Position numbers and translations under genes: made by a program. From assembly GCA_965116175.1 (NCBI GenBank), contig OZ220490.1, forward strand, positions 65,466 through 129,465: a stretch of DNA of 64,000 nucleotides, given 5' to 3'. Under the pieces are notes generated by a model. The model saw nothing but the letters and a program-made list of their open reading frames with translations, ran no database searches and was not told the DNA's origin. The stretch is from Bdellovibrionales bacterium (GTDB lineage Bacteria; Bdellovibrionota; Bdellovibrionia; Bdellovibrionales; UBA1609). Positions 9,931 to 32,053 of this stretch are shown here, piece after piece (the stretch's first letter is position 1; each line of letters starts with the position of its first letter).

Positions 9931-12175
9931 GGGTTTCCGGCGCATTTTCCTTTAATTCTTTTTTATCACTTCCCCCCTTATCCTTGTTTTGTAACTTCTC
10001 TAAGACTTGTTTTTTCTTTTTATATTGGTTAAGCAAAAGGCTGAGAGACTTGTTGAGCTTCTGCAAAGAGTGGATTTGCTGTTCCTGTGTTTCTGTTTTC
10101 TTTTGCAAATCCTGCCACAGGGTTTTTAAACTTTCATTTTGATCTTCCAAATTTTTATTGGACTTTAACTGTTTATTAATATTAGTTTGGCTTTCTTCCA
10201 AAGATTTTTCCAAAACAAATTGCTTGGTTTTTAATTCCTGGTTTTCTTTCTGGAGTAAAGTCAGGTTATTTTGAGTGTCTTTAATCTGCTGTCCTTTTAT
10301 ATTTTTAAAGGTTTCATATCGTTTTTTCTCACTGCATAAATCATTTTCCATTTCTATACGAATGTGACGAAGCTTTTTTTGAAATGAATCTGATAATTTA
10401 TTTATTCTTTTTTCATAGTCAGATTTTAGATTTTCTATTTCTTTTATGTTATGTTCTTTAATAAGCATTATATTTTTATCTTTATCCCATCTCAGTCTTT
10501 TTATTTCCTCTTCCAGTTGTTTTTTCTCTTTTAGAAAAGGATGGTTTTCTTTAGCTTGAAGCTTTTGGATTTGTTTTTCCATGTCTCTGTTATGTTCTTT
10601 AACAGCATTGAGCTCCCCGCAAAGCTCATTTATGTGTCGTTCCTTTTCTTTTTTTATATTTTCTTTTTCCTGGAGAGATTGTGTTTTAAATTGTGATATA
10701 TTTTTTTCTAAAGTTTGGATGTGACTTATTTTTTCCTCTAAGGCTTTTTGTGATTTTTTGTGATTTTGATAAAGTGCTGCATATTTATTCTGGAAAGACA
10801 GTATAGCTTGATCAAAACCAAGCTTGCCAGAGGAAAGAACTCTTTTTAGATTTTCACATTGAGATTTTAAAGCCTCTTTTTCTTTTGTGATAAATTGCAG
10901 CTGACCACTAAAGTCAGATTTTAATTGTTGTTTTTGTTTGTTCAGTTCATCAATTTGATTTTTGTGATTCAACAAGTTCTTTTGATACTCTTCATATTTC
11001 TGAAATTCTTTTTGAAAAGCTGTTATTTTTTTATTTTCCTCTATGATAATTTTTTTCTCTCTTTTTATCTTTTCTTCTTGCTTTTTAAAACTGTCATTTT
11101 CCTTCTGTATGGCTTTAAGATTTTTTTCCATCAGGGCTGCTTGCTCTTTCTTTTCTTTTTGCTCTATTTTTAGATCTTTTGCTGCCTGAGCCATTTGTTT
11201 TTCTTTTTCTTTGATCACAGAGTTGAGGTTTTTTATTTGTATATCATAATCTTTTTTTAACTCTTCATTTTTTTGTTTAAAGAAAAACTGCTCTTTGACA
11301 AATCTTTTTAAGCCATTATTTTCTTTTTTTGTGATTTTTAGATCTTTTGCTGCCTGAGCCATTTGTTTTTCTTTTTCTTCAATCAGAGTATTAATTTTGT
11401 TTACTTTAAATTCCTGGTTTTTTTTCAGAATTTCATTTTCTTTTTTCAGAAGAATTTGTTTTTCTAAAAAGGACTGATTGGCTTTACTTGTTTTTTTGAG
11501 TTCGCCGGACAATTCTTTATATTTTTGATTTAAGTCATGGTTTATATCTTCAAGCTCTTTCAATTTTTCAGGAGAAATAGGGCTTGTTTTATTTTGTTCT
11601 TTTGTAAGAGCTTGATGAAGCTCTTGTATCTTTTCTTCCAGCTTTTGTGTGTTGTGTTTATATTCTTTTTGTATATCTTGTTTTTCTCTTTTATATAAAA
11701 CCTGAAGATTCTCTATTTGTTTTCTATAAACTTGTTCTTTTTTATTAAGGAGTTTGATACTTCGCTCCTGTATTTTAAGAATGTTCTGATTAGGCAATGT
11801 TTCAATATTTTCCTGAACAGGAATTTTTTTTGCTGTCTCCAAGGCTTTTTTTAATAGACGGGATTGCTCATTAAATGCACGGTGTTGTCTGGCAAAAACA
11901 GAAATTTGATCTTTTAAATTAAGAAACTTGTTTTTTAAAACTGTGTTTTTATTATCCAAATAGGATTTTTCTTTGGAAAGAGAAGATAGTTTTGTATAAA
12001 GCTGCGTGTTTTCTTTACCGGTTTTTGAGAGGCGAGCCAACAGATGAGCATTTTTTTTATACAAAATCTCAAGCTCTTTGGAGTTGATAATTTCATAAAT
12101 GCTTTTTTCTTGTTCAGAAGCTTTTTTTTCCTGATCCTCCTGTAAAATGGGTTTTGTGTACTTTGTTGTATCCAT
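9896..12175 (-). CDS. Large K/E/Q-rich coiled-coil protein
   Basis: The 759 aa are almost entirely heptad-like charged sequence. There is an internal duplicated block (EKEKQMAQAAKDLKI x2). The 3' end overlaps the convergent STAS gene by 35 nt. Confidence 0.6.
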   Translation of the reverse strand: MDTTKYTKPILQEDQEKKASEQEKSIYEIINSKELEILYKKNAHLLARLSKTGKENTQLYTKLSSLSKEKSYLDNKNTVLKNKFLNLKDQISVFARQHRAFNEQSRLLKKALETAKKIPVQENIETLPNQNILKIQERSIKLLNKKEQVYRKQIENLQVLYKREKQDIQKEYKHNTQKLEEKIQELHQALTKEQNKTSPISPEKLKELEDINHDLNQKYKELSGELKKTSKANQSFLEKQILLKKENEILKKNQEFKVNKINTLIEEKEKQMAQAAKDLKITKKENNGLKRFVKEQFFFKQKNEELKKDYDIQIKNLNSVIKEKEKQMAQAAKDLKIEQKEKKEQAALMEKNLKAIQKENDSFKKQEEKIKREKKIIIEENKKITAFQKEFQKYEEYQKNLLNHKNQIDELNKQKQQLKSDFSGQLQFITKEKEALKSQCENLKRVLSSGKLGFDQAILSFQNKYAALYQNHKKSQKALEEKISHIQTLEKNISQFKTQSLQEKENIKKEKERHINELCGELNAVKEHNRDMEKQIQKLQAKENHPFLKEKKQLEEEIKRLRWDKDKNIMLIKEHNIKEIENLKSDYEKRINKLSDSFQKKLRHIRIEMENDLCSEKKRYETFKNIKGQQIKDTQNNLTLLQKENQELKTKQFVLEKSLEESQTNINKQLKSNKNLEDQNESLKTLWQDLQKKTETQEQQIHSLQKLNKSLSLLLNQYKKKKQVLEKLQNKDKGGSDKKELKENAPETPNHILADLHFD
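11167..11379. repeat. 45-bp perfect direct repeat (two copies, 168 bp apart) inside the coiled-coil gene
   Basis: tttttagatcttttgctgcctgagccatttgtttttctttttctt occurs at 11167-11211 and again at 11335-11379. Confidence 0.85.
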
Positions 12176-18267: not shown

Positions 18268-19764
18268 TTAAGTAAATCTTGGGGTAATGATATGTTCTGA
18301 CTTTAATTCAGAAAAGCTTTTTAAACCAAGAGATCCCAAGAGTTCGTAGTTGTATTTTATTAGGTTAAGAGCATAGTTTTTTACTCTTTCAGATTTATTT
18401 TCAATATCCAGACCTTTCATTAAGTGAGGATCATGAGTTGTAATTCCTGTAGGGCAGGAGTTGCTGTAGCATCTCAAGGCTTGAATACATCCTAAAGCCA
18501 AAAGGAATCCTCTGGCTGTGTATACGGCATCTGCTCCAAAAGCCAAAGCCATCATTTGCTTTCCAGAATTTATAAGTTTTCCTGAACATAGAATTTTAAA
18601 TTTATCAATTATGGAAAGCTCTTTTAGAACTTCCCGGACAATTTGAAGGGATGGCATTAAAGGGTATCCTAAGTCATCCATAAAAGTTTTTGGAGCAGCC
18701 CCTGTTCCTCCTTCTGATCCATCAATGGCGATATAATCCGGGAAAAGATTTTCTTTTTTCATAGTGGAAAATAACTCATGAATTTCATTTTCTCTTCCCA
18801 GACAAAATTTTACACCTACAGGAAGCTCACTTATATCCTGAATCTTTTTAATAAAACGCACAGTGGAGTAAGCGTCTTTGCATTCATTGTGTCTTGGAGG
18901 GGAGAGAAGATCCTGGCCTAACGGAATATTTCTTAAATTTGCGATCTCTTCAGTGATTTTTTCTTTTGGAAGCAAGCCTCCTTTGCCAGGTTTTCCCCCT
19001 TGAGAAAGTTTGATCTCAATCATTTTGATCTGTGGTTTTTGACAAAGAGCTGTTAATTTATTCTCATCCAGATCCCCATTTTCTTTCCGCACACCAAATT
19101 TTGCTGTACCCATTTGAAAAATAAGATCACAGTTTTCCATTAAGTGATATTTTGGATAACCTCCTTCACCTGTATTCATGGATATATTTGCTTTTTTAGC
19201 TCCACGGGCTAGTGCACGGACAGCGGCTTTCCCTAAAGAACCATAACTCATCCCTCCAATGAGAAGAGGATTGTTTATTTTATAGAAGTTTTTCAACCCT
19301 CGCTCTTCTCCAAAAGTAAGAGAAAATGGCGCAATGTTCTTTTGAATTTCAGGGTAAAGAGAATGTTTAAGTTTATATTCTTTTTCATCAAAGTTAAGGA
19401 GGGAGCCAAAGGCTGAAGCTTTATCTTCATTTTTGGCTTTAATATAAACATCTCGTCTTTCAGTGCGGTTAAAGGGTTTTTCTTCTATATCACTGGAATA
19501 AAGATATTGGCGGAACTCAGGGCCCAGGCTTTCCAAAAAATAGCGCAAAAAGGCCAATATTCCAAAGTTTGACAGAAGTGTGTGTTTTTTTTGTATATGC
19601 CGACAATAAAGGTCCAACAAAATGAGAAAAATAAGAAAAATTGTAAAAAAGGAATAAAAAGAAAAAAAGTACCAACTTAAAATCAAAAGAGGAGGCAAAA
19701 GGAACTTGATAAAAGAGGCGAGCTTTTCAACTTTAAATTGGATGGCAACCTCCAAAAGCGACAA
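18268..19764 (-). CDS. FMN-binding glutamate synthase family protein (GltB domain-2-like) with N-terminal TM helices
   Basis: Contains NTGEGG, LSQGGKPGKGGLLP and IDGSEGGTGAAP. The N-terminus is hydrophobic. Confidence 0.85.
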   Translation of the reverse strand: MSLLEVAIQFKVEKLASFIKFLLPPLLILSWYFFSFYSFFTIFLIFLILLDLYCRHIQKKHTLLSNFGILAFLRYFLESLGPEFRQYLYSSDIEEKPFNRTERRDVYIKAKNEDKASAFGSLLNFDEKEYKLKHSLYPEIQKNIAPFSLTFGEERGLKNFYKINNPLLIGGMSYGSLGKAAVRALARGAKKANISMNTGEGGYPKYHLMENCDLIFQMGTAKFGVRKENGDLDENKLTALCQKPQIKMIEIKLSQGGKPGKGGLLPKEKITEEIANLRNIPLGQDLLSPPRHNECKDAYSTVRFIKKIQDISELPVGVKFCLGRENEIHELFSTMKKENLFPDYIAIDGSEGGTGAAPKTFMDDLGYPLMPSLQIVREVLKELSIIDKFKILCSGKLINSGKQMMALAFGADAVYTARGFLLALGCIQALRCYSNSCPTGITTHDPHLMKGLDIENKSERVKNYALNLIKYNYELLGSLGLKSFSELKSEHIITPRFT

Positions 19765-20093
19765 TTGTCTGGAACATTTTGTTTAGGCTTAAAATTCTAA
19801 ACAGAATCAGAAACTTTGTTAATGAAAAAATACTTATCACAACTTTCAGATTCTAATCTGTTTTGCTGATAAAACATTTTTTTATAGCATCCCCTTTTCC
19901 GGATTAACAATCAACCTTTTTTGTTTATTTTATTTCAATAAAAGACCTTAAACTTCAAACAAGACCAGTATAAATCTGTATATTTTTACAGTTAACTAGG
20001 AGCCACTCTGATATTTTTCTTGCAGATTAAAAACGCAAAAGTTACATTGTAAAAAAGTTTATTTGCAAATGATTGTAAGAATGGAGGAGCATA

Positions 20094-20576
20094 TTGAAAC
20101 AGATCGGGCTTTTGGCATCTGTTGTTTTTATAGTGTGGCTTGGTTATAAATTTTTCCAAAGTCCGGAAAGATATTTAAAAAAGACCTCTGAAAAAATAAT
20201 CAAGGTGGTCTCTGTTAAAGGCGCTCACTCGGATATGAGTCTTATTTCCAAAGTTTCAAAAATAGCTAAGTTTATCCATTTTGATGTTCAATTAAAAGCT
20301 GAATATGAAAATCAGATTTATAAAGCCCATTCCCTGAATGAATTTCGGAGTCTTCTTTTTACTTATTTTAGGAATGGAGCCACAGGAGAAGTCACTTATG
20401 ATAATTTATATGTGACAATGGATAAAAATCAGGAAAGAGGTGTAGTCAAGTTTGATGTTTATTTCAAGAGAGGCCGTAAAAATGTTTTTTGTAAAGCTCT
20501 TTTTGAATGGATAAAAGAAAAAAAATGGTATGTCAAAAGGATTGAAGTTCTTCCCTGTTCTCCGTCTACACTTTAA
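20094..20576 (+). CDS. Hypothetical protein with an N-terminal TM/signal anchor
   Basis: 160-aa ORF with a TTG start and a hydrophobic N-terminus. I recognise no motif. Confidence 0.45.
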   Translation: MKQIGLLASVVFIVWLGYKFFQSPERYLKKTSEKIIKVVSVKGAHSDMSLISKVSKIAKFIHFDVQLKAEYENQIYKAHSLNEFRSLLFTYFRNGATGEVTYDNLYVTMDKNQERGVVKFDVYFKRGRKNVFCKALFEWIKEKKWYVKRIEVLPCSPSTL

Positions 20577-20668
20577 AGAAGATGTTTTAAAAGAAAAACT
20601 TCAATTATGTTTTTTTTAGAAAGTCCAATAAGAAAAAATCGGAAGTTTAAATAAAGTTATTTTAATGT

Positions 20669-20920
20669 TTGGGGATTCTTATGTTATTTAAATATTCTTT
20701 AAAAAAGAAAGGCAGAAAAGACTTCATTATTTTAATTATTCGGATTCATCTTCTTGTTTTTTGTCTTATTGCTGTTTTATGGAGCCGCCGGCAAATTAAG
20801 AAAAAATGGTCTCCAGACAATAGTGTTCGGATTATAGAAAGAAAAGCCCGGTTTCTTCCTTCTGTAGAACAGGATGAAAGCGCTGAAAAACCAAAAAATA
20901 AGGAAGCTCAGTCGCTGTAA
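20669..20920 (+). CDS. Hypothetical small membrane protein (weak call)
   Basis: 83-aa ORF with one hydrophobic helix. There is no other support. Confidence 0.25.
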   Translation: MGILMLFKYSLKKKGRKDFIILIIRIHLLVFCLIAVLWSRRQIKKKWSPDNSVRIIERKARFLPSVEQDESAEKPKNKEAQSL

Positions 20921-21040
20921 GATATTCTTTTTATGCTCATCCTGTTTGAAATTCCATTTTTTTATTCTTTTGTTATATTGAAAAATATAGAGAAGCTTCT
21001 TGAAAACCTAACAGCTTTTGTATAGGATATTTTGCTATGT

Positions 21041-21116
21041 TCAGGTGTAGCTCAGCTGGTAGAGCAAGTGGCTGTTAACCACTGGGTCGGGGGTTCGAGT
21101 CCCTCCACCTGAGCCA
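21041..21116 (+). tRNA. tRNA-Asn (anticodon GTT), CCA encoded
   Basis: Hand-folded cloverleaf: acceptor tcaggtg/cacctga, D stem gctc/gagc, anticodon stem agtgg/ccact, loop ctGTTaa, T loop ttcgagt. Confidence 0.93.
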
Positions 21117-21337
21117 TTTTTGCAGGTTGCTCCTTCGTTAGTCTATTCTGGAGACATACTTTACACTTTCTCTATCCGAATTGAATAAAAAGGCGCAAAA
21201 TAAAATTAAAACATCTCAAAAAGTGGATTTTTTGCTATAAAATGAGCTACTGACTCTGGATTTGGAATGGAAACTCTTGTAAGGTATGGAAGAATTGAGG
21301 GGAATATACCAAGATATGATACACTGGTGTTGTTGCT

Positions 21338-21805
21338 ATGTCTGAAATACATATAAAAATAGACGGTCAGGAAAAGATATGGCCCGAGGCTGTTATAACT
21401 CCTAAAGATATTTTAGAGTTTGAGAAAAAACAGGAGCCTTATGATGCCTATGTTATTTTTAAAATTCAAGGAGATAAAAAGCAGGAAGTATGGAATGGAA
21501 CGGCAAAGGATGATTTGCATAAAAATATAGAAATTAAAAATGATGATGTATTTTATATTGAACATAAGCCAAAAGATTTAAAAATATATTATACTGTCAA
21601 TGGGGAAACACAAGAAATTTTAGCGTCAGATAACAAACTGACGGTTGTCCAAATACTTGAGAAAGCAAAATTTGTCCCTGTGGAAAAATTTAAACTGTTT
21701 AATGCTAAAACAAAAACAGATTATACAAACCCCAGTCAAGAAATAATTGTTCAAAATGGAGATGAGTTTTTAGCTCTATCTTCAGGGCCGACTCCTGTTG
21801 CATAA
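21338..21805 (+). CDS. Ubiquitin-like protein with two tandem beta-grasp (multiubiquitin-type) domains
   Basis: Two ~75-aa halves share the same pattern: IHIKIDGQEKIW..ITPKDILEF...NDDVFYI, and IYYTVNGETQEI...LTVVQILEKAKF...NGDEFLALSSG. It is the first gene of the E2/E1-JAB operon. Confidence 0.7.
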   Translation: MSEIHIKIDGQEKIWPEAVITPKDILEFEKKQEPYDAYVIFKIQGDKKQEVWNGTAKDDLHKNIEIKNDDVFYIEHKPKDLKIYYTVNGETQEILASDNKLTVVQILEKAKFVPVEKFKLFNAKTKTDYTNPSQEIIVQNGDEFLALSSGPTPVA

Positions 21806-22232
21806 TTCAGTGGAAGATTTAACGAATCAAATTCAAAAGGAAATAAAAAAGATTCTCTCTTGTGAATTACATCAGATACAAGAGATGAAAAATTGGAACT
21901 CATCTTTAAATAGAGATGGTTACCTATGCATATTTAAGTATGTGATTCCATGTGGTTCTCTAGAGAATAAAAAAATCACGATTGGTGTAGAACTTCCGCT
22001 AAATGATTATCCAAGATTACCGCCTCATTTTATACATTTAAAACAAGAGGAGTTTAGTGAAGAGAAAAGACAAAAAATGGATAAGATACATGAAGAGTAT
22101 GAAAATAATGGAGAAACTTGGCTGACGCTTAGTCGTCCTCCTCAAGATATATGGGATGATTTGGATAATTCAAAAAAAAATTTGCATACCTTTTTTGAAT
22201 CACATTTAAGAAGAGTTTGGAAGAATTTATGA
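21798..22232 (+). CDS. E2/UBC-fold-like protein (prokaryotic E2 family) lacking a Cys at the expected active-site position
   Basis: DYPRLPPHFIHL resembles the E2 YPxxPPxxxF block. HEEYENNGETWLTLSRPP occupies the position of HPN...G.IC. TTG start at 21798 (alternative GTG at 21810) overlaps the Ubl gene stop. The E2 stop overlaps the next start as ATGA. Confidence 0.6.
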   Translation: MHNSVEDLTNQIQKEIKKILSCELHQIQEMKNWNSSLNRDGYLCIFKYVIPCGSLENKKITIGVELPLNDYPRLPPHFIHLKQEEFSEEKRQKMDKIHEEYENNGETWLTLSRPPQDIWDDLDNSKKNLHTFFESHLRRVWKNL

Positions 22233-23662
22233 AATATGAAGTCACTTTAACCGAAAAAGCTCATAGTATCGCCTGCAACCATTTATTATCTCATTTTAAG
22301 CAAAATAAACTTCAAGAAGAACTGTGTTTTGCGCTTTGGTATCCTTGTAGCGGCAAGAGCAAGACAACAGCTCTAATCTCTGAGATTATTCTTCCTGAAG
22401 GAAATGAACGGAAGCTTCATGGCAATACAAGTTTTCTACCGCAGTTTTTAGCTCGTTCATTACGAATAGCTATAAAAAAGAAAGCGGGGCTTGCTTTTAT
22501 GCACAGTCATCCGACAAAGGGATGGCAGGATATGAGTGGCCCGGATATTATTGCAGAAAAAGATCGCATAGCATCACCTGCTAACAGTACAAATATGCCT
22601 TTGATTGGTTTAACAGTGGGCATAGATGAAAGTTGGAGCGCCAGATTCTGGATAAAAGAGAAGAACAGAAGATTTAAACGATTTTGGTGTGATAAAGTAA
22701 AAGTGATTGGAAATTGTTTAAAAATCACATTTAATGAGCAGGCGTATAATACATTTCAAAATAAAAATATTTTGCGGAGGACTATTGAAACCTGGGGATC
22801 AGATGAGCAGTTAAAAATCAGCAGAATGACAGTGGGGGTTGTAGGTATTGGCAGTGTAGGTTCAATGGTTAGTGAGAATTTGGCGAGAATAGGAATCGGA
22901 AATATTGTTTTAATAGATCACGATAAAATTGAAGAGCATAATTTAGACAGATTGCTTTACGCTACCAAAAAAGATATCGGAAAGTTTAAGTCTGAGTTCT
23001 TTAAAACTAAGATACTTAAGCATTCTGTGAATGAAAATGTGAAAGTAAACTCCCTAATACAACCTATACAATCACAGTCTGCGTTCAGATTGGCTTTGGA
23101 TTGTGATATTATTTTCAGTTGTGTAGATAAACCTTTGGCGAGAGATATTTTAAATCATATAGCTTATGCTCATTTGATACCTGTTATTGATGGAGGCATT
23201 GCGGTGAATAAAAGATACGACAAGTTTTCTGATGCTCGCTGGAGTTCTCATATTATATCCTATGGGCGCAAATGTATGTTATGTAGAAAGCAATATACAA
23301 CTTCAGATGTTTCTATGGAACTTGATGGTTCTCTTGAAGACCCCTCTTATATTGAAAGCTTACATTCAAGCCGGGGGTTTGGAAATGAGAATGTTTTCCC
23401 TTTCAGTCAAAATTTGTCCAGTATAGAGGTGTTAATGATGATACGCTTTTTACTATTTAAGGACTGGTGGCCAAAATTAAATAGTTTGGAATATAATTTT
23501 TTATCAGGGCAAATGAATATAGATGAATCTTCTTGCAATAAAGGATGTTATTTTTTAAGTATTATTGGAAAAGGGGATACAAATCGTATTAAACTATTAC
23601 AAGAAGATGTAAAATTTGAGAAAAGAAATTTATTAAATCTTATTCTTAAATTATGGAGGTAA
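22229..23662 (+). CDS. JAB/JAMM metallopeptidase - E1 (ThiF/MoeB-type adenylyltransferase) fusion protein
   Basis: The N-terminal part has QEELCFAL and HSHPTKGWQDMSGPD, a JAMM E...HxH...SxxD motif with 8 residues rather than the canonical 7 between the second His and the Ser. The C-terminal part has the Rossmann motif GVVGIGSVGSMVSENLARIGIGNIVLIDHDKIEEHNLDRL plus Cys pairs (CMLC, CNKGC). The ATG at 22229 overlaps the E2 stop (ATGA). Confidence 0.85.
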   Translation: MKYEVTLTEKAHSIACNHLLSHFKQNKLQEELCFALWYPCSGKSKTTALISEIILPEGNERKLHGNTSFLPQFLARSLRIAIKKKAGLAFMHSHPTKGWQDMSGPDIIAEKDRIASPANSTNMPLIGLTVGIDESWSARFWIKEKNRRFKRFWCDKVKVIGNCLKITFNEQAYNTFQNKNILRRTIETWGSDEQLKISRMTVGVVGIGSVGSMVSENLARIGIGNIVLIDHDKIEEHNLDRLLYATKKDIGKFKSEFFKTKILKHSVNENVKVNSLIQPIQSQSAFRLALDCDIIFSCVDKPLARDILNHIAYAHLIPVIDGGIAVNKRYDKFSDARWSSHIISYGRKCMLCRKQYTTSDVSMELDGSLEDPSYIESLHSSRGFGNENVFPFSQNLSSIEVLMMIRFLLFKDWWPKLNSLEYNFLSGQMNIDESSCNKGCYFLSIIGKGDTNRIKLLQEDVKFEKRNLLNLILKLWR

Positions 23663-23664
23663 TT

Positions 23665-24939
23665 ATGAAAATCAATGAAATAAGTCTAAAAAACTTAAGA
23701 TGTTTCCCTAAAGCAGAAAGCGCGATTCGTCCTATCACTGTAATTGTGGGTGAAAATAATACAGGAAAAACGACATTCTTATCCACTTATAAACTTATTC
23801 ATGATTTGTTGTATGAAGATAAACCTATAAAGCCTTCGTCTATAGAAGATTTATTGAAGGGGGAAACTTATAAATATCTTGGGGGGCCTAAGCATATTGT
23901 TAGGACACAGGATAATGCCGATATAGTGAATATAGGAGCAACTTTAAAAATTGGAGAACAAGATATCTGGAATGTGGAATATTCAATAAAAAATGGAAAA
24001 TTCTGTGAGAAGATTTTAATACATTGCTTTGAAAATAAGATAGAAGTAAAATTAACAGAAGGCAGTATAATGGAGTTTCTTATAAATGGACAACAGGGGT
24101 ATAATTCTACTACACCTGCTCATTTTTCTATTCACTTTTTTGGAGTTATTTCTTTTTTGTGTAATGAGCTAAAAAATAAACTTGAGAAAAATGAAATTTT
24201 ACATTCAAAAATAACTTCTGTTATAAGGTTTAAAGAAAGTGGCATTTTAAAAAATATATCTTGTAATCTTCTTGATCCGATTCACTTAAAGCCGAAATCC
24301 CAGTATAATCAAACAGAGATTAAAACTACAGATCCATCTTATGTTTTATGTGAAATGGCAGAGATGAAGAAAAATAACAACTGGAGTAAAATAAGAGAGG
24401 AATTTAATAAATTTGGTAAAGCCTCAAAACTTTTTCAAAGTCTGGATATAGATATATTAGATGAGAGTAATGGCGAGTCTCCATTTTCAATAAAAGTTAC
24501 AGTTGATGAGTTATCATCAGATATTACAAATGTTGGTCATGGGGTAAGCCAGTTTTTACCTATGTTGGCAAACCTATTTATTTCAGATTCAGAAAAATAC
24601 AACACCTTTCTAATGCAACAACCGGAAACTCATCTTCATCCTAGAGTAGAAGCTGAATTTGCTACTCTTATGATTAACATGATAAATAAACACAAAGAAA
24701 AATATAAATTTATTTGTGAAACTCATAGTGATTATATTATTCAGAGGGCTCGTATTGAAATCAAAGAGCAAAAGCTAAACCCTAAAGATTTTTTAATACT
24801 TTATTTTGAACTAAAAAATGGAGAAGCAAAAATTTATCCTATCACTATTGATTCAAATGGAAACTTTGAAAATCAACCAAACAGCTATAAGGCATTCTTT
24901 TTGTCAGAAGATTACAAACTTTTAGGCTTAAAAGATTGA
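23665..24939 (+). CDS. ABC-type/AAA_21-like ATPase (SMC/OLD-family N-terminal ATPase fold, no Toprim seen)
   Basis: Walker A is VGENNTGKTT, preceded by ISLKNLRCF. Signature-like GHGVSQFLPML is present. Walker B/D-loop is FLMQQPETHLHP and the H-loop is CETHSDYI. GGAGG lies 6 nt upstream of the ATG at 23665, inside the E1 gene end. Confidence 0.75.
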   Translation: MKINEISLKNLRCFPKAESAIRPITVIVGENNTGKTTFLSTYKLIHDLLYEDKPIKPSSIEDLLKGETYKYLGGPKHIVRTQDNADIVNIGATLKIGEQDIWNVEYSIKNGKFCEKILIHCFENKIEVKLTEGSIMEFLINGQQGYNSTTPAHFSIHFFGVISFLCNELKNKLEKNEILHSKITSVIRFKESGILKNISCNLLDPIHLKPKSQYNQTEIKTTDPSYVLCEMAEMKKNNNWSKIREEFNKFGKASKLFQSLDIDILDESNGESPFSIKVTVDELSSDITNVGHGVSQFLPMLANLFISDSEKYNTFLMQQPETHLHPRVEAEFATLMINMINKHKEKYKFICETHSDYIIQRARIEIKEQKLNPKDFLILYFELKNGEAKIYPITIDSNGNFENQPNSYKAFFLSEDYKLLGLKD

Positions 24940-24993
24940 ACCTGATAATGTTTGTCTTATTTTTGGCAGTGTGATTCAAAAGAAAGGAATATT

Positions 24994-25461
24994 ATGAAGT
25001 TATCGCGTAAAGGAATAATTATTGACGCAGAAGCTTTTCACAAGTTTATAAATATAAATCATGAAGATTCAAAACCTGTCCATCAATGTATTAAGAAAGG
25101 AACATTAAAATTAGTATATGGCAATGATAAAAAAAGTTCAGATGAAATAAAAAGAGACAGCCGTATGATCGATATGCTGGGAAAATTAACAAGAGCTGGA
25201 GCTGTTTATCAAGCCAATTCAAAAGAAAAGAAAAAGGAAATTGATGCTAAGGATAGAATTATAGAAGGCACACAATTAAAATCTAACGATACACATATTA
25301 TTGCTATAGCTTTAGTGGAAAAAAAGGCCAGGTTGTTATTTAGCGTCAGCAGAGGCGATAAGAAATTGCATAAAGATTTTAGAAACCCCAAAATAATAAA
25401 AGAACCCCGAGGAAATATATATCAGGAATACAGCAAACATTCAGGTTTGTTACCGCGATAA
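24994..25461 (+). CDS. PIN-like domain protein (predicted nuclease)
   Basis: GIIIDAEAF is a beta1 Asp-type strand. SNDTHIIAIALVEKKARLLFSVSRGDKKLHKDF...PRGNIY resembles a PIN-like family pattern (sND.H.lALA....ARLL.t.D..L..DF...PRG.vY). The ATG at 24994 has an AAAGGAA RBS; the track ORF opens earlier, at TTG 24952. Confidence 0.45.
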   Translation: MKLSRKGIIIDAEAFHKFININHEDSKPVHQCIKKGTLKLVYGNDKKSSDEIKRDSRMIDMLGKLTRAGAVYQANSKEKKKEIDAKDRIIEGTQLKSNDTHIIAIALVEKKARLLFSVSRGDKKLHKDFRNPKIIKEPRGNIYQEYSKHSGLLPR

Positions 25462-25657
25462 TATAAAGTGTACTAGTTAAGACATGATCTGACAGTTACT
25501 GTTATCTACTAATCCGAGTATTCTGTTAAAATCCCGTTAAAATGAGTTTTGATTTTAAAAACTCCAATGCTTTCAAGGCTTACAAAGAGCAATGGCGGGG
25601 TGGGTATTTTTCCCCGCAAACCCTTGAAAACATGAAACTTTTTAAATCCATGTAGCA

Positions 25658-26339
25658 TTACCTCTTCCTTTTCACAAAAGAAATAAGGGAATTACTTGGA
25701 AATTTTTGGAAATGCACTTCATAACTGAGTTTGTTTGTGCTCCCTTTTACTCCCACACCTGCCAAGCGGTTATAAATATCTGTTGTGGCTATCTTTCTAT
25801 GTCCTACAATAGACATCACAACATTTAAGGCCGCTCCTTTGGCTAACTGTTGGTAATATAAGAGCTCTCTCAAGTCATGGAATCTCAGTTCAGGGATATT
25901 TATCCCTTTACAAAAATCCCTCAGAAACCTTGATTGCTTTCCTTGTTTCTATTCTCCCACTCTTGGAAAAGTAAGTTTTCCCAGACAAATACTTTTTCTT
26001 GTTTGGCTTCATAAAGAGTTTCTTTATAACCGCCTTTAGCAATATACCACTCTAAAAGGGGTCTTAATTCCAGCTATAGAACAACACGATTAAGACTGGT
26101 CTTTGTTTCATTAGATGTAAATTGTTTTTTTACATAGATAGTCCCTGCTGATAAATCCACATCAGAAACTCTAAGAGCATATATCTCTCCATTCCGGCCA
26201 CTGCCCAATGAGGATAAAACCTGTGGTTGCAAATATGAGCTTCTTTTAAAAGCTTATCCGCTTCCTCAGAAGTTAAAATCTTTTGTTCAGGTGAGGGAAG
26301 TTTGATTTTAATCTTTTTTCCGGAGTTTTTGTTGATCAC
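25658..26339 (-). pseudogene. Tyrosine recombinase (phage-type integrase) remnant, frameshifted and N-terminally truncated
   Basis: The fragments give GRNGEIYALRVSDVDLSAGTIYVKKQF (catalytic-domain R box, in a different frame from the 26130..26339 ORF) and VVMSIVGHRKIATTDIYNRL (the HxxxxxTTxxY C-terminal box with the catalytic Tyr). Stops and frameshifts lie between them. Confidence 0.8.
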
Positions 26340-26413
26340 TTTCCCTCAAGCCCTCAACAAAGGGTGAAGGGCTATTCAAGAGGGCGGATTTTTATATTTT
26401 CTTTGGTTAGCTT

Positions 26414-26692
26414 TTATAAACTTGGACTGATTTCTTCTTCTTGGGCAGGGCGAGCTTCTTTTAAAGAAAGATTTTTGGCAAACAAGCCTCTGGCTGTTCT
26501 GACAACTAAGACTTCTACAATATCCCCTTTATTAAGCTTTTCATAAGAAGTATTGGTAAATTCTGTTACAGTGGAAAAGTATACATCTTGTTTATTTTGT
26601 TTATCCCAAATAGCACCAAAACCAATATCCGGCATAATCCGACGGATGGCTCCTTTAGCTGTTCCTTTTACCTCTAACACTTTCTCATACAT
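26414..26692 (-). CDS. Cold-shock-domain (CSD/OB-fold)-like small nucleic-acid-binding protein
   Basis: GAIRRIMPDIGFGAIWD...QDVYFS...LNKGDIVEVLVV..ARGLFAKNL parallels the CspA pattern G.VKWF...GFGFI...DVFVH...L.eGq.V.f....kG..A.nv. Confidence 0.55.
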   Translation of the reverse strand: MYEKVLEVKGTAKGAIRRIMPDIGFGAIWDKQNKQDVYFSTVTEFTNTSYEKLNKGDIVEVLVVRTARGLFAKNLSLKEARPAQEEEISPSL

Positions 26693-26774
26693 CTGATTTA
26701 CTCCTTTTAGCTGAAGTCTTATTTTTTAATCATAAAACCATTACACTATAAAGCAAAAAGTATTTCAGATCAGT

Positions 26775-29639
26775 TTATAAAGAAATACAATCCTTTGTAA
26801 CCAACTCTTTTAAATTTTTGACAACCTGTGGCAATCCAGGGCCTGTGATCTTTTCGCCTTTAGATTCTTTTTCAGATAAATCTAAATTTAGTTGCAAAAG
26901 AAAATCCAGTTCATCCTGATTTGTTTTGAAGCCATAAGCAGAATAAACAGCCTCATCTAAAGCTTTATGATATTTTAGCAATTCATGATCCCCAGGTAAT
27001 TCTATAGAACGATATAAATCACGATAGCTTATCCCTTCTTTTTTTAAAATTTTTGCTCTTACTTCTCTTAAATTTCTAGCTTTTTTAGCAACTGTCTTTA
27101 TCTTGGCTAATGTAGGTTTCTGTGGCCAAGGGAAAGTGTCATATACTGTGTTAGTTGTGTAGCGAAAAGTCTCAGCTAAAGTTGAACACTTATGAGTGAA
27201 CCAAATCCAATGCATACTGGATTGTAAAATTCCAAAAGAATAATCGTCATCAAAAGTAAAAGCGACCAAAGCTGCATTTGGGTTTATATCTGAATGGACA
27301 AACTCAAAGATACCTCTTTGTGTAACTTGTCCACAAACACAGTATCTTTTTATTTTTCTAATTTTCTTCATTAAATCTGTTCTAGGATAAGATAACTGCC
27401 ACCATGTTTTTAAAAAATTCTGATGATGTCTATTCACCCTGGCTTTAGGGTTTGTCTTTAGTAGCTTTTTGTTTCGAGCTTTTTCCTTCTCTGCTTCCTC
27501 TCTCCTTTTTGGTAAAACTGTTTTTTCTATGACTTTATATAATCCTTTATATTTTTGAGCCTGTATTAGAGTTTTATCTGAAAAATCTATAACATATCTT
27601 TGAGGCAAGGGAGTTTTCCCAGCTATAAAATTATGAGCTGTTAAAAAAGGCTTTAAAACATCTTTAAAATTTATGTTTTTTGAAATATTTTTTTCAGCTT
27701 CGTTTTTTGGAAGAAGAAAAGAAGCATGTCCATGTGTTTGACCTTGAGAAGCCGCCTTAGATTTTCTATTAACATTTAATACTTTAGCTTGAGAAACATC
27801 TACATCAATAGACAAAGCAGAATTAATCTCTTTTAGCTCGTTAACATGTAATTCTTGTTCATAACCATCAAGATATATACTTTTTCCTATGAACAGCCTC
27901 TTTTTTTTATTTTTATATAATTTATCCTTTGTCCAATTTACTATAGACACATAAACAGCGGCTTCACCAGACCATTTTTGGCTAGACACAGCTTCTGTAA
28001 TGATGCCTCCGTTTTGAACAATATGATCCAAAGAGCCTTCTCTGGAATAGTTTTGCCGAATAGTGTTTGTTCCAACCAATCCAGCTATACCTTTTTTTGA
28101 AAGATGGTCATGGGCTTTTTTAAACCAATAAACACAATAATCCGCTCTTCCTGGCACAGTGGGATAAGCTTCACGAATTTTGTTTATATAGCTTACTCCC
28201 ATTTCTTGTTGGATTTTGTTCTTGGATTGATACGGTGGATTACCAATAATAGCATCCACTTTAGGCCACACAGCAAACAAAGCATCTTCAGCCAAAAAGT
28301 TATTATCCAAGTCATCAAACGGCAAAGAGGAGTCTTGTATATTAAACTCATCAGCTAAAATTTTTCGACCAATGGATAAAGCTACTTTTGCTAATTCCAA
28401 CCCAAATTTGTTTGTATCAATACCATAAAAGTTTTTTGGGGAAACAAGCAAGCCAAGTTCTGAGGGGCGAATTTGTCCTCCTTCTCCTAAATCTTCTAAA
28501 ATTTCCATTTCAAGTTTTCTTAACTCCCTAAAGGCGATATAAAGAAAATTTCCACTACCACAAGCCGGATCTAAAACTTTAAATTCTTGTATTTCTTTTA
28601 ATAGTTTTCTTTTGTTTCTTTTTGTTTTTGCCTTGTTTATTTTTTCTTTAAATGGTTGGACAATAGAGGGCCCAACAATTTTATATATGTCTAATTCATG
28701 AGTATAATGGATGCCGTGACCGTGTCTTCTTTTTGGATCCATACTGCCTTCAAAAAGAGAACCAAATATAGATGGTCTTACTTTTTCCCAATTTTGCTTT
28801 GAGGCATCATGTAGCAGTTCCACTTCTTTATAAGATAGCTCCACTGCATCAGTTTTCTTAAAAATTCCCCCATTAAAATATTCAATATGTTTATATTTTC
28901 TTGGTTTATCAAACTTATTTTTTATTGCCATTGCCTTAAATAAGAGAGACAGTTCTTTTTGAGCTGGAAGATCAATTAAGCATTTTTTTAAAATTTCATG
29001 CAAAGTATATTGAGGTATCAATCCAACATCTTCTGAAAACAGAGCTATAACCAATTGGAGTATAAATCTCTGGGCCTTATCTTTTGATATTCCTCTTTTC
29101 TCCATAGACATATAGATTTCACCAATAGTTTTTGCAACCTGTTCTGTGATAGCTACATTATGATTATCAAATAGAGGCTCTTCCTCTACAGGCAAAAGAA
29201 ACTTTAAAGCGCCCCAACTCATTTGAAGGTCTTTTGTATTCAGCTTATGAACAGGATCGTTTAATTGGTTGTTTAAATCGTATATCCAAAACTCATCAAA
29301 ATTACATAAAACCATATACTTTGGACGACTAGGAACTAGAGTAATCCAGTAATCAAAAGCTTGATCATAATGCTTCTGAAGAGGCATGCCTCTCTTTTTT
29401 AATTCAATAATTACTCTAGGCTTCCAAACAAGATCAGGGAAAATAACCCCTCTGCCTTTTCGTTTTTTGACTGGTAGTTCACAAATGGCTCCCGCCCCTA
29501 GAACTCCTGTATTGCCAAAAGCTTGAAGAAGCCGATCAAAAAATATCTGACCTTCTCCTTTTTCAGAACCTTTACAATTCTTGAACCAGTCTAAAAAAGC
29601 TTTGATTCTCTCTTGATGTTCTTTCTGGTTGATTGTCAT
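26775..29639 (-). CDS. MmeI-family type IIL (IIG) restriction endonuclease / N6-adenine DNA methyltransferase fusion
   Basis: The N-terminal PD-(D/E)XK block FPDLVWKPRVIIELKKRGMPLQKHYDQAFDYW closely parallels MmeI FVDLFWPGILLIEMKSRGKDLDKAYDQALDYF as I recall it. The SAM motif I is VLDPACGSGNFLY and motif IV is IIGNPPYQS. The 954 aa size is typical of the family. Confidence 0.88.
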   Translation of the reverse strand: MTINQKEHQERIKAFLDWFKNCKGSEKGEGQIFFDRLLQAFGNTGVLGAGAICELPVKKRKGRGVIFPDLVWKPRVIIELKKRGMPLQKHYDQAFDYWITLVPSRPKYMVLCNFDEFWIYDLNNQLNDPVHKLNTKDLQMSWGALKFLLPVEEEPLFDNHNVAITEQVAKTIGEIYMSMEKRGISKDKAQRFILQLVIALFSEDVGLIPQYTLHEILKKCLIDLPAQKELSLLFKAMAIKNKFDKPRKYKHIEYFNGGIFKKTDAVELSYKEVELLHDASKQNWEKVRPSIFGSLFEGSMDPKRRHGHGIHYTHELDIYKIVGPSIVQPFKEKINKAKTKRNKRKLLKEIQEFKVLDPACGSGNFLYIAFRELRKLEMEILEDLGEGGQIRPSELGLLVSPKNFYGIDTNKFGLELAKVALSIGRKILADEFNIQDSSLPFDDLDNNFLAEDALFAVWPKVDAIIGNPPYQSKNKIQQEMGVSYINKIREAYPTVPGRADYCVYWFKKAHDHLSKKGIAGLVGTNTIRQNYSREGSLDHIVQNGGIITEAVSSQKWSGEAAVYVSIVNWTKDKLYKNKKKRLFIGKSIYLDGYEQELHVNELKEINSALSIDVDVSQAKVLNVNRKSKAASQGQTHGHASFLLPKNEAEKNISKNINFKDVLKPFLTAHNFIAGKTPLPQRYVIDFSDKTLIQAQKYKGLYKVIEKTVLPKRREEAEKEKARNKKLLKTNPKARVNRHHQNFLKTWWQLSYPRTDLMKKIRKIKRYCVCGQVTQRGIFEFVHSDINPNAALVAFTFDDDYSFGILQSSMHWIWFTHKCSTLAETFRYTTNTVYDTFPWPQKPTLAKIKTVAKKARNLREVRAKILKKEGISYRDLYRSIELPGDHELLKYHKALDEAVYSAYGFKTNQDELDFLLQLNLDLSEKESKGEKITGPGLPQVVKNLKELVTKDCISL

Positions 29640-29865
29640 GATGCATTTAAGTATTTATATTTTTTCCTCTTAAAGCAATAATTTCTAGCTGCGGTTTATA
29701 TCCTTTCAAAAGGCATCTTTCAGAAGTGATTTTGATTCTTTCTACTTTTGTAGACTTTAGTATAGGTAAAAAATTAGCTTCATTAAGAAAAGGTTCAAGA
29801 TACTTTAAGTCGCCTCGCAACATGAAATGTTAAAGCTGTGGAGTTAAAAAAGCGTGATGTTCAAG

Positions 29866-29955
29866 TGGCGGAGAGGGAGGGATTCGAACCCCCGAGACCC
29901 GTGAAGGTCTGCCGGTTTTCAAGACCGGTGCAATCAACCGCTCTGCCACCTCTCC
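29866..29955 (-). tRNA. tRNA-Ser (anticodon TGA), long variable arm, CCA encoded
   Basis: The reverse complement folds as: acceptor ggagagg/cctctcc, anticodon stem ccggt/accgg with loop ctTGAaa, an extra arm, and T loop ttcgaat. Confidence 0.92.
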
Positions 29956-29987
29956 CTTTTTAAAAATTATAGTGTAAGTCAATTACA

Positions 29988-30208
29988 AATCATGCCTTTA
30001 GAATTTTATAGAGACCTTATTTTGAAGGTATAAATTTTAATGTTCAAGAGCTATAAGCTATTTTCCTTATAAAACTGTGGGTAACCTGATAATCCTTTCT
30101 CTTTAACAAGCTGTAACGCCAACTGAAGGGCTGAATCCATATTTCCAGCCCCTTTATAACACTCAATCAGTCCAATAGAAGTTTCAGTGTCAGTTTTCAG
30201 GTATTTCT
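29988..30208. repeat. Decayed duplicate (~220 bp) of 32181-32252 joined to 32659-32807 (the 3' end of the TPR-protein gene and flank)
   Basis: By-eye alignment is roughly 90% identical. The junction falls at a shared ctatt microhomology, so this copy lacks the ~400 bp present in the intact locus. Confidence 0.8.
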
Positions 30209-30286
30209 TGTTTTAACCTGTGTATCTGCCTTTATCCGAACAAAGAGAAACATTGCCATTAAAGAGCCTCAATAGCTTCAATTAAG

Positions 30287-30591
30287 GGTAGTCATGCATT
30301 CATTACGGTCGATCCAGTGATGAGGTCTCTCTGGAGGGCAGGTATTTATACAAGAGTCTGTAGCTGTATCCCATTTCGGTTTTTCCGGAGGGCAGACCAC
30401 ACATCTAAATCCATCAGAGAATCCTGGGTCATCATCTAGGGGTAGTCATGCATTCATTACGGTCGATCCAGTGATGAGGTCTCTCTGGAGGGCAGGTATT
30501 TATACAAGAGTCTGTAGCTGTATCCCATTTCGGTTTTTCCGGAGGGCAGACCACACATCTAAATCCATCAGAGAATCCTGGGTCATCATCT
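30287..30591. repeat. Tandem direct duplication, 2 x 151 bp (period 154 bp), covering the 3' end of the 30432..31847 gene
   Basis: ggtagtcatgcattcattacggtcgatcc...cctgggtcatcatct is present at 30287-30437 and again at 30441-30591. Confidence 0.9.
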
Positions 30592-31847
30592 GTCCCGCAA
30601 GAGATATCACACACTCCCCGCCGGTTTTCTGCAGCCTTACTCCGAGCAGTGCCTGGAACACAGCGGTCGAAACACCAGCGGTTTATACATCTTTGATTTG
30701 ATGAACAAGCAGGTGAACATTCAGATTCTGGCGGCGGGGTTTTAGATTCTGGCGGCGGGGTTTTAGATTCTGGCGGCGGGGTTTTAGATTCTGGCGGCGG
30801 GGTTTTAGATTCTGGCGGCTGTTGGTTGTTATTGCCGGAATTATCGCCTCCGCCACCGCTGACTGTGCCGCCAATTAAACCTTGACACAAATCATCCACC
30901 CAATCATCCAGATCCCCCACATCCCCTATCTCATTGCTGTTGCTCCCAGCCGCATCCTCATGGATCCAACCACTCGCATTCCTATTATTTCCTGTCCCCT
31001 GACGGCTATTCACTTTCTCATCTATTATCTCCTCTATATACTCCTCAAAATCATCATGGTTCAACCAATCATCCCTCGCATCATCATCCATCCCTTTTCC
31101 TATCTTACAATACACCGCAAAACAAGCCCTCGTCTCCGTATCACTCTTACAAGCGCTATTCTTGTTATTTATATACTCCTGAAACCAATCCAATATCAGC
31201 TCACTTTCCACAGCCTTCTCTATCAACTTATCCCCATCCAACCTCTTCAAAAACGGTTCAGATATCCCATGATCATTACTGCTATAACTCCCGCTGAACT
31301 TCTTCAATAAAGCCTCTAAACTCTTATGATCATCATCTTCTTTCTCAAATATCTTCGCAATATCCTCATTCTCTATCAACCACATTAAAAACTCCTTCGC
31401 ATCCCTGCTGTTATACTTCTTAATCAAACTATCCAATGATCTTATCGAAACATTCAAATACAAATCAAAAACATCCTTATCCACCCCTGATAAATCCTCC
31501 GCATCCGGGTTCTTTAACAACTCATACAAATCCCATAAGGCCTCCACCTGAGCCACTGTCAACTCTTCACAATCCCCTCGATCCCCACGGCTCCTATACA
31601 TATCCTTACAATACTCATAACAATCATGGCTTTTATTCTTATCCTCACATTTTTCTGTATCCCCTCTTATCGTCCTGGCTGTACGCTTGATCACCTCATC
31701 CCTGTTCTCATCATTGGCCTTCTTAACCTCATATTCATTCTCTGTCCTTTCTACAGCTGGCGGACCAAAACAAGAACCTACATAAACAAGCAGTAAACTT
31801 ATCAGCGCTACTCTTAGGCAGTTCATAAAAAATCCCCTGTCAGTCAT
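30432..31847 (-). CDS. Secreted acidic protein with (KTPPPES)n linker and Cys-rich C-terminal modules
   Basis: It has a signal peptide/lipobox-like N-terminus (LLLVYVGSC), a D/E-rich helical region, GGGDNSGNN, PPESKTP x5, and a C-terminal ~100 aa with 16 Cys. Confidence 0.65.
   Translation of the reverse strand: MTDRGFFMNCLRVALISLLLVYVGSCFGPPAVERTENEYEVKKANDENRDEVIKRTARTIRGDTEKCEDKNKSHDCYEYCKDMYRSRGDRGDCEELTVAQVEALWDLYELLKNPDAEDLSGVDKDVFDLYLNVSIRSLDSLIKKYNSRDAKEFLMWLIENEDIAKIFEKEDDDHKSLEALLKKFSGSYSSNDHGISEPFLKRLDGDKLIEKAVESELILDWFQEYINNKNSACKSDTETRACFAVYCKIGKGMDDDARDDWLNHDDFEEYIEEIIDEKVNSRQGTGNNRNASGWIHEDAAGSNSNEIGDVGDLDDWVDDLCQGLIGGTVSGGGGDNSGNNNQQPPESKTPPPESKTPPPESKTPPPESKTPPPESECSPACSSNQRCINRWCFDRCVPGTARSKAAENRRGVCDISCGTDDDPGFSDGFRCVVCPPEKPKWDTATDSCINTCPPERPHHWIDRNECMTTPR
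30724..30819. repeat. 21-bp tandem repeat, 4 perfect units plus a partial fifth (encodes KTPPPES on the minus strand)
   Basis: gattctggcggcggggtttta recurs at 30724, 30745, 30766 and 30787, with a partial unit at 30808. Confidence 0.9.
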
Positions 31848-32053
31848 CTTGAACCAAATTCTTAATCAACAAACTCTATCTTTAAAACTAGTTTCATGAA
31901 TCTTTTAAGCCTCTTATCTTCTTTCTTTTTGATGATTTATTTTACCCCCCCTTTTTTTTAAGCTAAATTTTTAACAAATGACAGAATTTAAACCTGAAAC
32001 AAGACAAAAGTTGTAAGTCTACTCTTTTGGTTCACTTTCTTATAAGCATTGTT

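Follow-up and report, generated by a model that had tools for sequence, protein, structure and literature searches.

What does an ATP-binding cassette (ABC) ATPase of a defence-associated class do when it carries no nuclease of its own and is followed by the gene of a small, single-domain protein? Two adjacent genes raise this question in a stretch of 64,000 nucleotides from a Bdellovibrionales bacterium (GTDB lineage Bacteria; Bdellovibrionota; Bdellovibrionia; Bdellovibrionales; UBA1609; GenBank assembly GCA_965116175.1, contig OZ220490.1, forward-strand positions 65,466 to 129,465), hereafter called the window. A preliminary description of this DNA had proposed that the two genes form a module of an ATPase and a PIN-like protein that is not among the named ATPase-nuclease systems. 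Our analysis indicates that the pair is probably an ATPase-effector module of the HEC-03 kind, related to the NsnB-NsnC part of Menshen, which is co-transcribed with three upstream genes of a ubiquitin-like pathway and by default would be mechanistically separable from them.

The ATPase and its PIN-domain partner

Both open reading frames (ORFs) lie where the preliminary description had placed them. The first encodes a product of 424 amino acids (aa), with an ATG at 23665 seven bases 3' of a GGAGG sequence and a stop at 24939; use of an alternative in-frame ATG at 23653 would extend the protein by four residues. The ATPase matched the Pfam families AAA_15 (E 1.3e-21) and AAA_21 (E 1.6e-14) and, weakly, DUF3696 (E 0.02). 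Neither a Toprim nor an HNH match was detected in the Pfam scan or in the AlphaFold2 (AF2) model, and no nuclease domain is fused to the ATPase. Both domains were likewise missing from the PIN protein and from the neighbouring genes. Pfam, PADLOC, AF2 and Foldseek thus agreed with the earlier placement of this protein in the OLD/AriA/PtuA/GajA class without Toprim or HNH.

The ATPase motifs quoted in the preliminary description are present and were conserved in 72 homologues. They comprise Walker A (GENNTGKTT, residues 29-37), a signature-like G[H/Y]GVSQ of the GxG type (residues 291-296, GHGVSQ in the window), the Walker B region QQPExHLHP (residues 318-326, QQPETHLHP in the window) and the H-loop ETHSD (residues 352-356). 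The assignment of Walker B held with regard to conservation of the motif but not with regard to its character. It is non-canonical because the usual Asp-Glu of hhhhDE is replaced by Gln-Gln, a substitution that is invariant across the clade (66 ATPases). At this position, Glu-Glu (EEPE) was observed in more distant DUF3696 proteins, EQPE in HEC-03A, EN in NsnB and QQ in the window clade. Judged from the alignments, the catalytic carboxylates appear to have been lost in a graded manner across the ATPase lineage.

The AF2 model of the ATPase (predicted local distance difference test score, pLDDT, 89.7; predicted template modelling score, pTM, 0.91) consists of an ABC head, a large beta-rich Insert-1 and one C-terminal helix formed by residues 406-419. 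While this helix is conserved (Y..FFL.E...LLG), Insert-1 (residues ~50-200) is mostly unconserved in the homologue alignment. The best Foldseek matches of the model were Rad50/SMC heads and the PtuA proteins of retrons and Septu. In the comparison with PADLOC models, NsnB ranked first (E 1.3e-35, full length), followed by PDC-M55A (E 1.3e-31), AriA (E 3.7e-27) and the HEC-03 ATPase model (E 1.7e-24), and the GajA, Old and PtuA models matched at the N-terminus. The first four models were matched by all of 29 diverse ATPase relatives, with a best value of 3.7e-47 for NsnB. We found no literature on PDC-M55.

The second ORF encodes 155 aa from an ATG at 24994, which follows an AAGGAA sequence, to a stop at 25461. 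In its longest version, starting with TTG at 24952, it comprises 169 aa, and an exact look-up of this product returned no record. Profile searches against PDB sequences gave spurious matches only (a designed repeat protein and RPRD1B). Since no family matched the 155-aa protein directly, its assignment as a PIN domain required homologues and a structure model. The AF2 model, calculated from an alignment of 29 sequences, reached a pLDDT of 91.8. Its top Foldseek match in the PDB was the VapC toxin 5x3t_B (E 6.3e-4, probability 1.00, template modelling (TM) scores 0.53/0.58), followed by 3zvk, 6a7v, 1v8p/PAE2754 and Utp24. The five best specific PDB matches are all VapC toxins, with probabilities of 0.96-1.00 and TM-scores of 0.44-0.58. 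Among 54 diverse family members, 32 matched Pfam PIN (PF01850; best E 6.3e-8) and 11 matched PIN_3 (PF13470).

Conservation of the putative acidic residues provided the third line of evidence. In the 74 sequences taken from the loci as well as in the alignment of 54 diverse members, D11, E51, D99 and D122 together with S97, H101 and D128 reach a conservation of at least 90%. In the AF2 model, D11 follows beta1, E51 lies in helix 3, D99 is located at the N-terminus of the helix formed by residues 100-108, and D122 comes after the strand 114-116, so that the four residues appear to occupy the places of the PIN D-E-D-D tetrad. The family is large: a profile search of 1.84 billion representatives returned ~999 clusters at 50% identity, nearly all of them single-domain proteins of 140-160 aa. 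Structure model and Foldseek, Pfam matches of relatives and conserved acidic residues are three independent lines of evidence that agree and show that the 155-aa protein is a PIN domain, as the preliminary description had suspected. For the PIN assignment and the ATPase motifs, this agreement is far beyond chance. An identity as VapC-like PIN nuclease with an intact D-E-D-D site is strongly supported by these comparisons, and the protein is predicted to be an RNase.

Distribution of the pair and its relation to named systems

To define the range of the pair, one genome per GTDB species was scanned with the ATPase alignment. The scan yielded at least 317 relatives, of which the best 80 loci were examined. 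The ATPase-PIN subfamily is spread over more than 12 phyla with at least 317 loci, many of them in metagenome-assembled genomes of the sponge-symbiont type; the examined loci belong to Poribacteria, Chloroflexota, Acidobacteriota, Binatia, Planctomycetota, Spirochaetota, Proteobacteria, Bdellovibrionales and others. A PIN homologue is encoded directly downstream of the ATPase in 72 of the 80 loci. The genes are tightly arranged: in 64 of 68 measured junctions, the ATPase stop and the PIN start are at most 15 nucleotides (nt) apart or overlap, with a median gap of 3 nt. A conserved third gene is lacking beside the pair, the recurrent neighbours being lineage-specific housekeeping genes, and none of the surveyed ATPase-PIN loci contains a gene for a ubiquitin-like protein (Ubl), an E2 or an E1. 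Viral contigs harboured only four full-length ATPase relatives, all at contig ends, and the module is therefore not typically phage-borne. Taken together, it is strongly supported that the ATPase-PIN pair is an autonomous, horizontally mobile cassette in many phyla. The earlier idea of a two-gene module applies to these other loci. It does not apply to the window itself, in which the pair is not free-standing but forms the 3' end of a five-gene operon.

The claim that an ATPase-PIN pair is not among the named systems did not hold. HEC-03 of Pseudomonas cichorii has this architecture, with a 461-aa DUF3696 ABC ATPase and a 157-aa VapC-like PIN protein. Its protection against phages depends on both genes, and the system causes toxicity when induced (Payne et al. 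2024, bioRxiv 10.1101/2024.01.29.577857). It was discovered inside Hma systems, and pairs of the HEC-03 type are known to function on their own within other defence operons (same preprint). The pair in the window resembles HEC-03 in gene order and gene sizes, in a PIN gene that abuts the ATPase stop and in the VapC-like nature of the PIN partner. The C-terminal lobe of the ATPase is homologous to that of P. cichorii HEC-03A (28% identity, hhalign probability 99.7%), which carries GFGVSQ, MEQPEIHLHP and ESHSE. Common to both proteins are G[FHY]GVSQ, xQPExHLHP with a non-acidic second position and an ETHS/ESHS H-loop. In contrast, the N-lobe and Insert-1 could not be aligned, and Walker B reads EQ in HEC-03A and QQ in the window. 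The PADLOC model of the HEC-03 ATPase, which is named HEC-03B, covered residues 255-408 only and ranked below NsnB and PDC-M55A. On the side of the partner, none of the 54 PIN family members matched any PADLOC partner model, nor did the window protein match that of the HEC-03 PIN family, and PADLOC would therefore not call the locus HEC-03. The genomic setting differs as well, with fusion to a Ubl operon here and embedding in Hma systems in the case of HEC-03.

A related pairing exists in Menshen, which consists of NsnA, NsnB and NsnC (Millman 2022; Li et al. 2025, PMC12065111) and in which the ABC ATPase NsnB is paired with the PIN-like NsnC. NsnB combines AAA_15 and DUF3696 and has a degenerate Walker B and a GxG signature. 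Two C-terminal tails of NsnB are predicted to hold the PIN-like N-domain of NsnC, which is inactive, between them; the N-terminal PIN-like domains of NsnC are all catalytically dead and serve as ATPase-binding module (PMC12065111). NsnB was the best PADLOC match of the window ATPase, and the two share the degenerate Walker B, the GxG signature and a C-terminal helical tail. In both cases the partner gene directly downstream begins with a PIN-fold domain. NsnC, however, joins its inactive PIN to a C-terminal toxin domain, whereas the window partner is a single PIN domain that has kept D-E-D-D. NsnA (ParB-DUF262 and ParBDB) is found neither in the window nor in 85 loci, and a JAB-E1 gene lies upstream of the ATPase instead. 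Filing the locus under Menshen was rejected for the absence of the NsnA/DUF262 gene.

PARIS (AriA/AriB), Septu (PtuA/PtuB), Gabija (GajA) and OLD employ the same class of OLD-type ABC ATPase, with an ATPase oligomer that controls a nuclease. Their effector is Toprim or HNH, whereas here it is a PIN protein and no nuclease is fused to the ATPase. VapBC type II toxin-antitoxin (TA) modules share the PIN fold and the acidic tetrad, and VapC toxins were the top structural matches. In the window, by contrast, a VapB-type antitoxin is missing, and the PIN gene is preceded by that of its partner, the 424-aa ABC ATPase. Because NsnA is lacking, the partner is a single PIN domain with its catalytic residues retained, and it matches neither the HEC-03 PIN nor PADLOC, we regard the pair as a distinct, large subfamily of the ABC-ATPase plus PIN kind (HEC-03- and Menshen-like).

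The upstream Ubl-E2-JAB/E1 genes and the rival readings

In the window, the pair is preceded by genes for a polyUbl, an E2/RWD-like protein and a JAB-E1 fusion, all within the operon 21338-25461, and the ATPase start follows the JAB-E1 stop after 2 nt. The features of the region are listed below.

Table. Features of the window region containing the five-gene operon
Feature	Position	Strand	Basis
tRNA-Asn (GTT), left island edge	21041-21116	+	ARAGORN
polyUbl, two-domain, BubA-like, 155 aa	21338-21805	+	Pfam Multi_ubiq E 3.7e-4, below gathering score
E2/RWD-like, BubB-like, 144 aa	21798-22232	+	weak RWD match E 0.02; alignment; position and size
JAB/JAMM peptidase-E1 adenylation domain fusion, BubCD-like, 481 aa	22217-23662	+	Pfam ThiF 2.9e-35
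ABC ATPase, AAA_15/AAA_21 (OLD-ABC) class, NsnB/HEC-03A-like	23665-24939	+	Pfam, PADLOC, AF2, Foldseek, hhalign
Stand-alone VapC-like PIN protein, predicted RNase effector, D11-E51-D99-D122 kept	24994-25461	+	AF2, Foldseek, Pfam on relatives, alignments
Decayed tyrosine integrase, frameshifted fragments	25658-26339	-	two fragments, colinear parts of Phage_integrase, weak, E 0.007 and 0.012
Cold-shock-domain (CSD) protein, 92 aa	26414-26692	-	weak: retron Se72 effector NCBIfam E 7.6e-4, PADLOC CSD_V 1.1e-3
MmeI-family Type IIG restriction-modification (RM) enzyme, full-length, 954 aa	26775-29639	-	PADLOC REase_MTase_IIG 1191.8 bits; all five MmeI Pfam domains
tRNA-Ser, closes ~8.7-kb island	29866-29955	-	

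The upstream trio resembles Type I Bub or '6E' operons (Iyer 2006, PMC1779556, row 6e; Ye et al. 2024, PMC11601596) in the BubCD-like JAB-E1 fusion, the polyUbl, the cysteine-less E2/RWD-like protein and a tRNA-linked mobile or defence context. The Multi_ubiq match of a relative of the Ubl (locus L086) lies above the gathering score (6.2e-7), and the Ubl C-terminus ...LALSSG|PTPVA is conserved in four loci. Position and size of the E2/RWD-like protein agree with the 'inactive E2/RWD-like' protein of row 6e (Iyer 2006, PMC1779556). It contains no Cys downstream of its PPH motif and a conserved Ser in 'LSRPP'. The JAMM motif of the JAB-E1 protein is conserved (E34...H95-S-H97...S108..D111), as is a Tyr that follows the CxxC motif of the E1. 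Its best PDB sequence match was Citrobacter BubCD (9ea4_A, E 1.8e-21), which aligned over both domains and ranked ahead of other E1 enzymes. Type I Bub uses a cysteine-free oxyester chemistry with an E1 Tyr (Y370 of BubCD) and an E2 Ser (in BubB), to which the conserved Tyr and Ser of the window proteins may or may not correspond. Judged by the matches, the trio is a '6e'/Type I Bub-like gene set that lacks BubE.

Two differences from Type I Bub were found. Ubl and E2 are separate ORFs in seven of seven loci, spaced by -8 to +70 nt, in contrast to the BubAB fusion. Furthermore, the serine protease BubE/DUF6527, which is stated for all described Bub operons, is lacking, and an ABC ATPase and a PIN protein are present instead. 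DUF6527 was unmatched among the window proteins scanned from 18268 to 29639 and is absent from the gene tables of eight related loci. A 160-aa membrane-anchored ORF (20094-20576) was considered as BubE and rejected, as it showed no DUF6527 match and travels with a Glu_synthase gene in loci without an adjacent trio. A promoter and terminator scan of the operon was uninformative and returned fewer sites than shuffled sequence.

JAB-E1 relatives with about 50% identity to that of the window belong to a family of more than 3400 proteins (E<=1e-20). In the sampled loci (L086 7112-10470; L087/L088 7369-10551; L089 7380-10476), genes for Ubl, E2-like protein and JAB-E1 are followed by a convergent gene of 330-370 aa that overlaps the E1 3' end and is weakly DUF2971- and PDC-S31-like. 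An HTH_3 plus Peptidase_M78 (CapH/CapP-like) gene pair precedes the Ubl gene in L086-L088 and not in L089. Neither ATPase-PIN nor BubE was detected in these four loci, which by their gene content seem to represent a branch of 6E/Bub that lacks BubE and has not been described so far. One 598-kb contig carries both L086 and L090, about 15 kb apart, so that a stand-alone ATPase-PIN pair and a DUF2971-type Ubl-E2-JAB/E1 cassette lie within ~30 kb.

Do trio and pair act together? If so, the genes from 21338 to 25461 would constitute a single immune system with mutually dependent parts, in which a cysteine-less, BubE-less Bub-type cascade gates the ABC-ATPase/PIN RNase or has the pair as its output. 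The Ubl could be conjugated to the ATPase, the PIN protein or a phage protein and thereby arm or restrain the nuclease, or the pair could serve as output or effector in place of the fourth Bub component, which is missing. The arrangement is confined to one Bdellovibrionales-like clade, and within it the linkage is striking: wherever the E1 is at least 71% identical, ATPase-PIN lies immediately downstream (8/8 sampled loci: window, L001, L003, L004, L005, L091, L092 and L093). The junction between E1 and ATPase measures -19 to +2 nt in seven loci. The five proteins co-diverge, with a correlation of pairwise identities of E1 and ATPase of r=0.98 over 21 non-independent locus pairs. The five-gene block was found in at least six different genomic neighbourhoods and therefore moves as a unit. 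The lack of BubE, the convergent DUF2971-like gene at the same position in the ~50%-identical relatives, which looks like partner swapping, and the precedent of E1/E2/JAB modules that regulate sensor-effector systems in Type II CBASS, Pycsar and MBL point in the same direction. However, co-divergence and overlap demonstrate co-inheritance and co-transcription, not biochemical coupling, and neither ATPase nor PIN protein showed a trait peculiar to the five-gene clade, for example an added domain or a C-terminal Gly. The pair is autonomous in at least 72 loci of other phyla, none of which has a Ubl, E2 or E1 gene, and HEC-03-type pairs work alone even when nested in other defence operons. Within the clade itself, L002 and L090 carry an intact pair but no trio; these mutually syntenic loci have their own upstream region without E1 remnants and are nested among five-gene loci in a neighbour-joining tree of the ATPase. 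Two loci are decayed or ambiguous. L006 (9957-11272, beside tRNA genes) encodes a lone ATPase and retains 34 nt (13 aa) of the E1 3' end, which identifies it as a decayed five-gene cassette, and in L093 (10763-11214) a frameshift near residue 53 interrupts the PIN gene, which points to a pseudogene or else to an error in the assembly of long reads. With regard to autonomy, the data speak for independence of pair and trio. A single five-gene system is thus rather unlikely in our view, and we keep it under consideration because linkage in the clade is perfect, BubE is missing and the fourth gene appears to have been swapped.

Two further explanations concern the pair alone. It might be a plain TA or addiction module with the PIN protein as VapC-type toxin and the ATPase as proteinaceous antitoxin, which would stabilize the island or region without sensing phages. 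The VapC-like PIN with intact catalytic residues, the tight bicistron, the scattering of wider-family pairs among housekeeping genes, as is the case for TA loci, and the toxicity of HEC-03 on induction would all fit. We nevertheless judge this improbable, as a ~430-aa ABC ATPase encoded ahead of the toxin is unlike VapB antitoxins in both size and order, a gene for a small DNA-binding antitoxin is missing, the close clade is located in defence islands, and the characterized systems with the same class of ATPase (PARIS, Septu, Gabija, Menshen and HEC-03) are all anti-phage. Alternatively, the PIN-like protein could be a non-catalytic adaptor comparable to the inactive PIN (inPIN) of Menshen NsnC, with the true effector elsewhere. 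The dead, ATPase-binding N-terminal domains of NsnC set such a precedent, and the lack of a direct Pfam PIN match for the window protein would be in line with it. This is highly improbable given that the four acidic residues missing from NsnC inPINs are kept in at least 90% of the 74 and of the 54 diverse sequences, that a single domain makes up the protein across ~999 clusters and that no conserved third gene is available as effector.

The most probable explanation in our opinion remains that of an ATPase-effector module of the HEC-03 kind that shares a transcript with the trio and can be separated from it mechanistically. Such co-transcribed modules can be likened to what Payne et al. describe as 'embedded' defence genes. 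Several observations weigh against it. The window PIN protein is unmatched by the Pfam, PADLOC, PHROGs and NCBIfam models, and its Foldseek TM-scores to VapC are moderate (about 0.5-0.58). The PIN families of the window and of HEC-03 align over 37 C-terminal columns only (hhalign probability 44%). As PADLOC recognizes no partner, homology to HEC-03 is shown for the ATPase, along with a shared architecture, and not for the whole system. With its QQ Walker B, the ATPase could turn out to be no hydrolase at all. The neighbours of the wider family are housekeeping genes, so that a role in defence rests there on architecture and not on island context. Finally, the tight, conserved E1 junction and the correlation of r=0.98 argue that the modules may not be independent in this clade.

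For the HEC-03-like module, a regulatory ATPase with a nuclease as effector is a sensible model. A defence function can be proposed by analogy, and a possible mechanism draws on the genetics of HEC-03, AlphaFold3 models of NsnB4-NsnC2 and the structures of PARIS and Septu. The ATPase would oligomerize and silence the PIN protein through its conserved C-terminal tail, while the variable Insert-1 would sense a phage-derived trigger. An ATP-dependent conformational change might then release or activate the PIN RNase, and the freed enzyme would cut tRNA, rRNA or mRNA and thereby cause abortive infection. The invariant Gln-Gln suggests a binding-driven switch; the QQ Walker B would make the ATPase an ATP-binding switch with slow or no hydrolysis.

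Island context and significance of the pair

The operon begins 220 nt after tRNA-Asn. This gene and tRNA-Ser enclose a defence island of ~8.7 kb, in which the five-gene operon is accompanied by the CSD gene, the RM enzyme and what is left of the integrase. The weakly matching integrase fragments probably mark the remnant of a mobile element that adjoins the operon. A search for att-like direct repeats of the tRNA ends within 20900-30100 found only short chance repeats. The CSD gene is located between the integrase remnant and the RM gene, and its product may be a small defence-associated CSD protein according to its family matches. A similar IIG RM enzyme flanks the five-gene cassette in L092. 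Other defence neighbours in relatives of the window clade are ApaLI RM, AAA_13, TIR/SLATT and KAP NTPase genes.

Outside the island, a 471-aa protein is encoded at 30432-31847 on the minus strand. It has an N-terminal signal-like segment, five tandem PPESKT repeats, a Cys-rich C-terminus and no Pfam match. In its surroundings, GC content is raised (0.46 at 30001-31000) and GC skew is extreme (-0.57 at 31001-32000). Strongly negative AT skew together with low GC content (0.28-0.30) was observed at 10001-12000 (-0.36 to -0.40) and at 44001-45000 (-0.35).

As a kind of system, ATPase plus PIN is already known. What is new is an uncatalogued subfamily and its clade-specific fusion to a BubE-less Bub-like cassette. 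The subfamily is a large sister family of the validated HEC-03, with at least 317 loci in GTDB species representatives and about 1000 PIN clusters. As its PIN partner is not recognized, it would escape the current PADLOC models. The natural Gln-Gln represents a built-in 'EQ-like' state and could reveal whether ATP binding alone switches defence ATPases of this type. Fusion of the pair to a BubE-less Ubl-E2-JAB/E1 trio has not been described before. Should the modules turn out to be uncoupled, the locus would be one more case of defence modules stacked in one operon. If they are coupled, the pair offers a handle on the output of a bacterial ubiquitin-like pathway, and a single five-gene system would for the first time link an identifiable effector to a Bub/6E-type pathway, providing a directly testable read-out for a family that has been without a phenotype so far.

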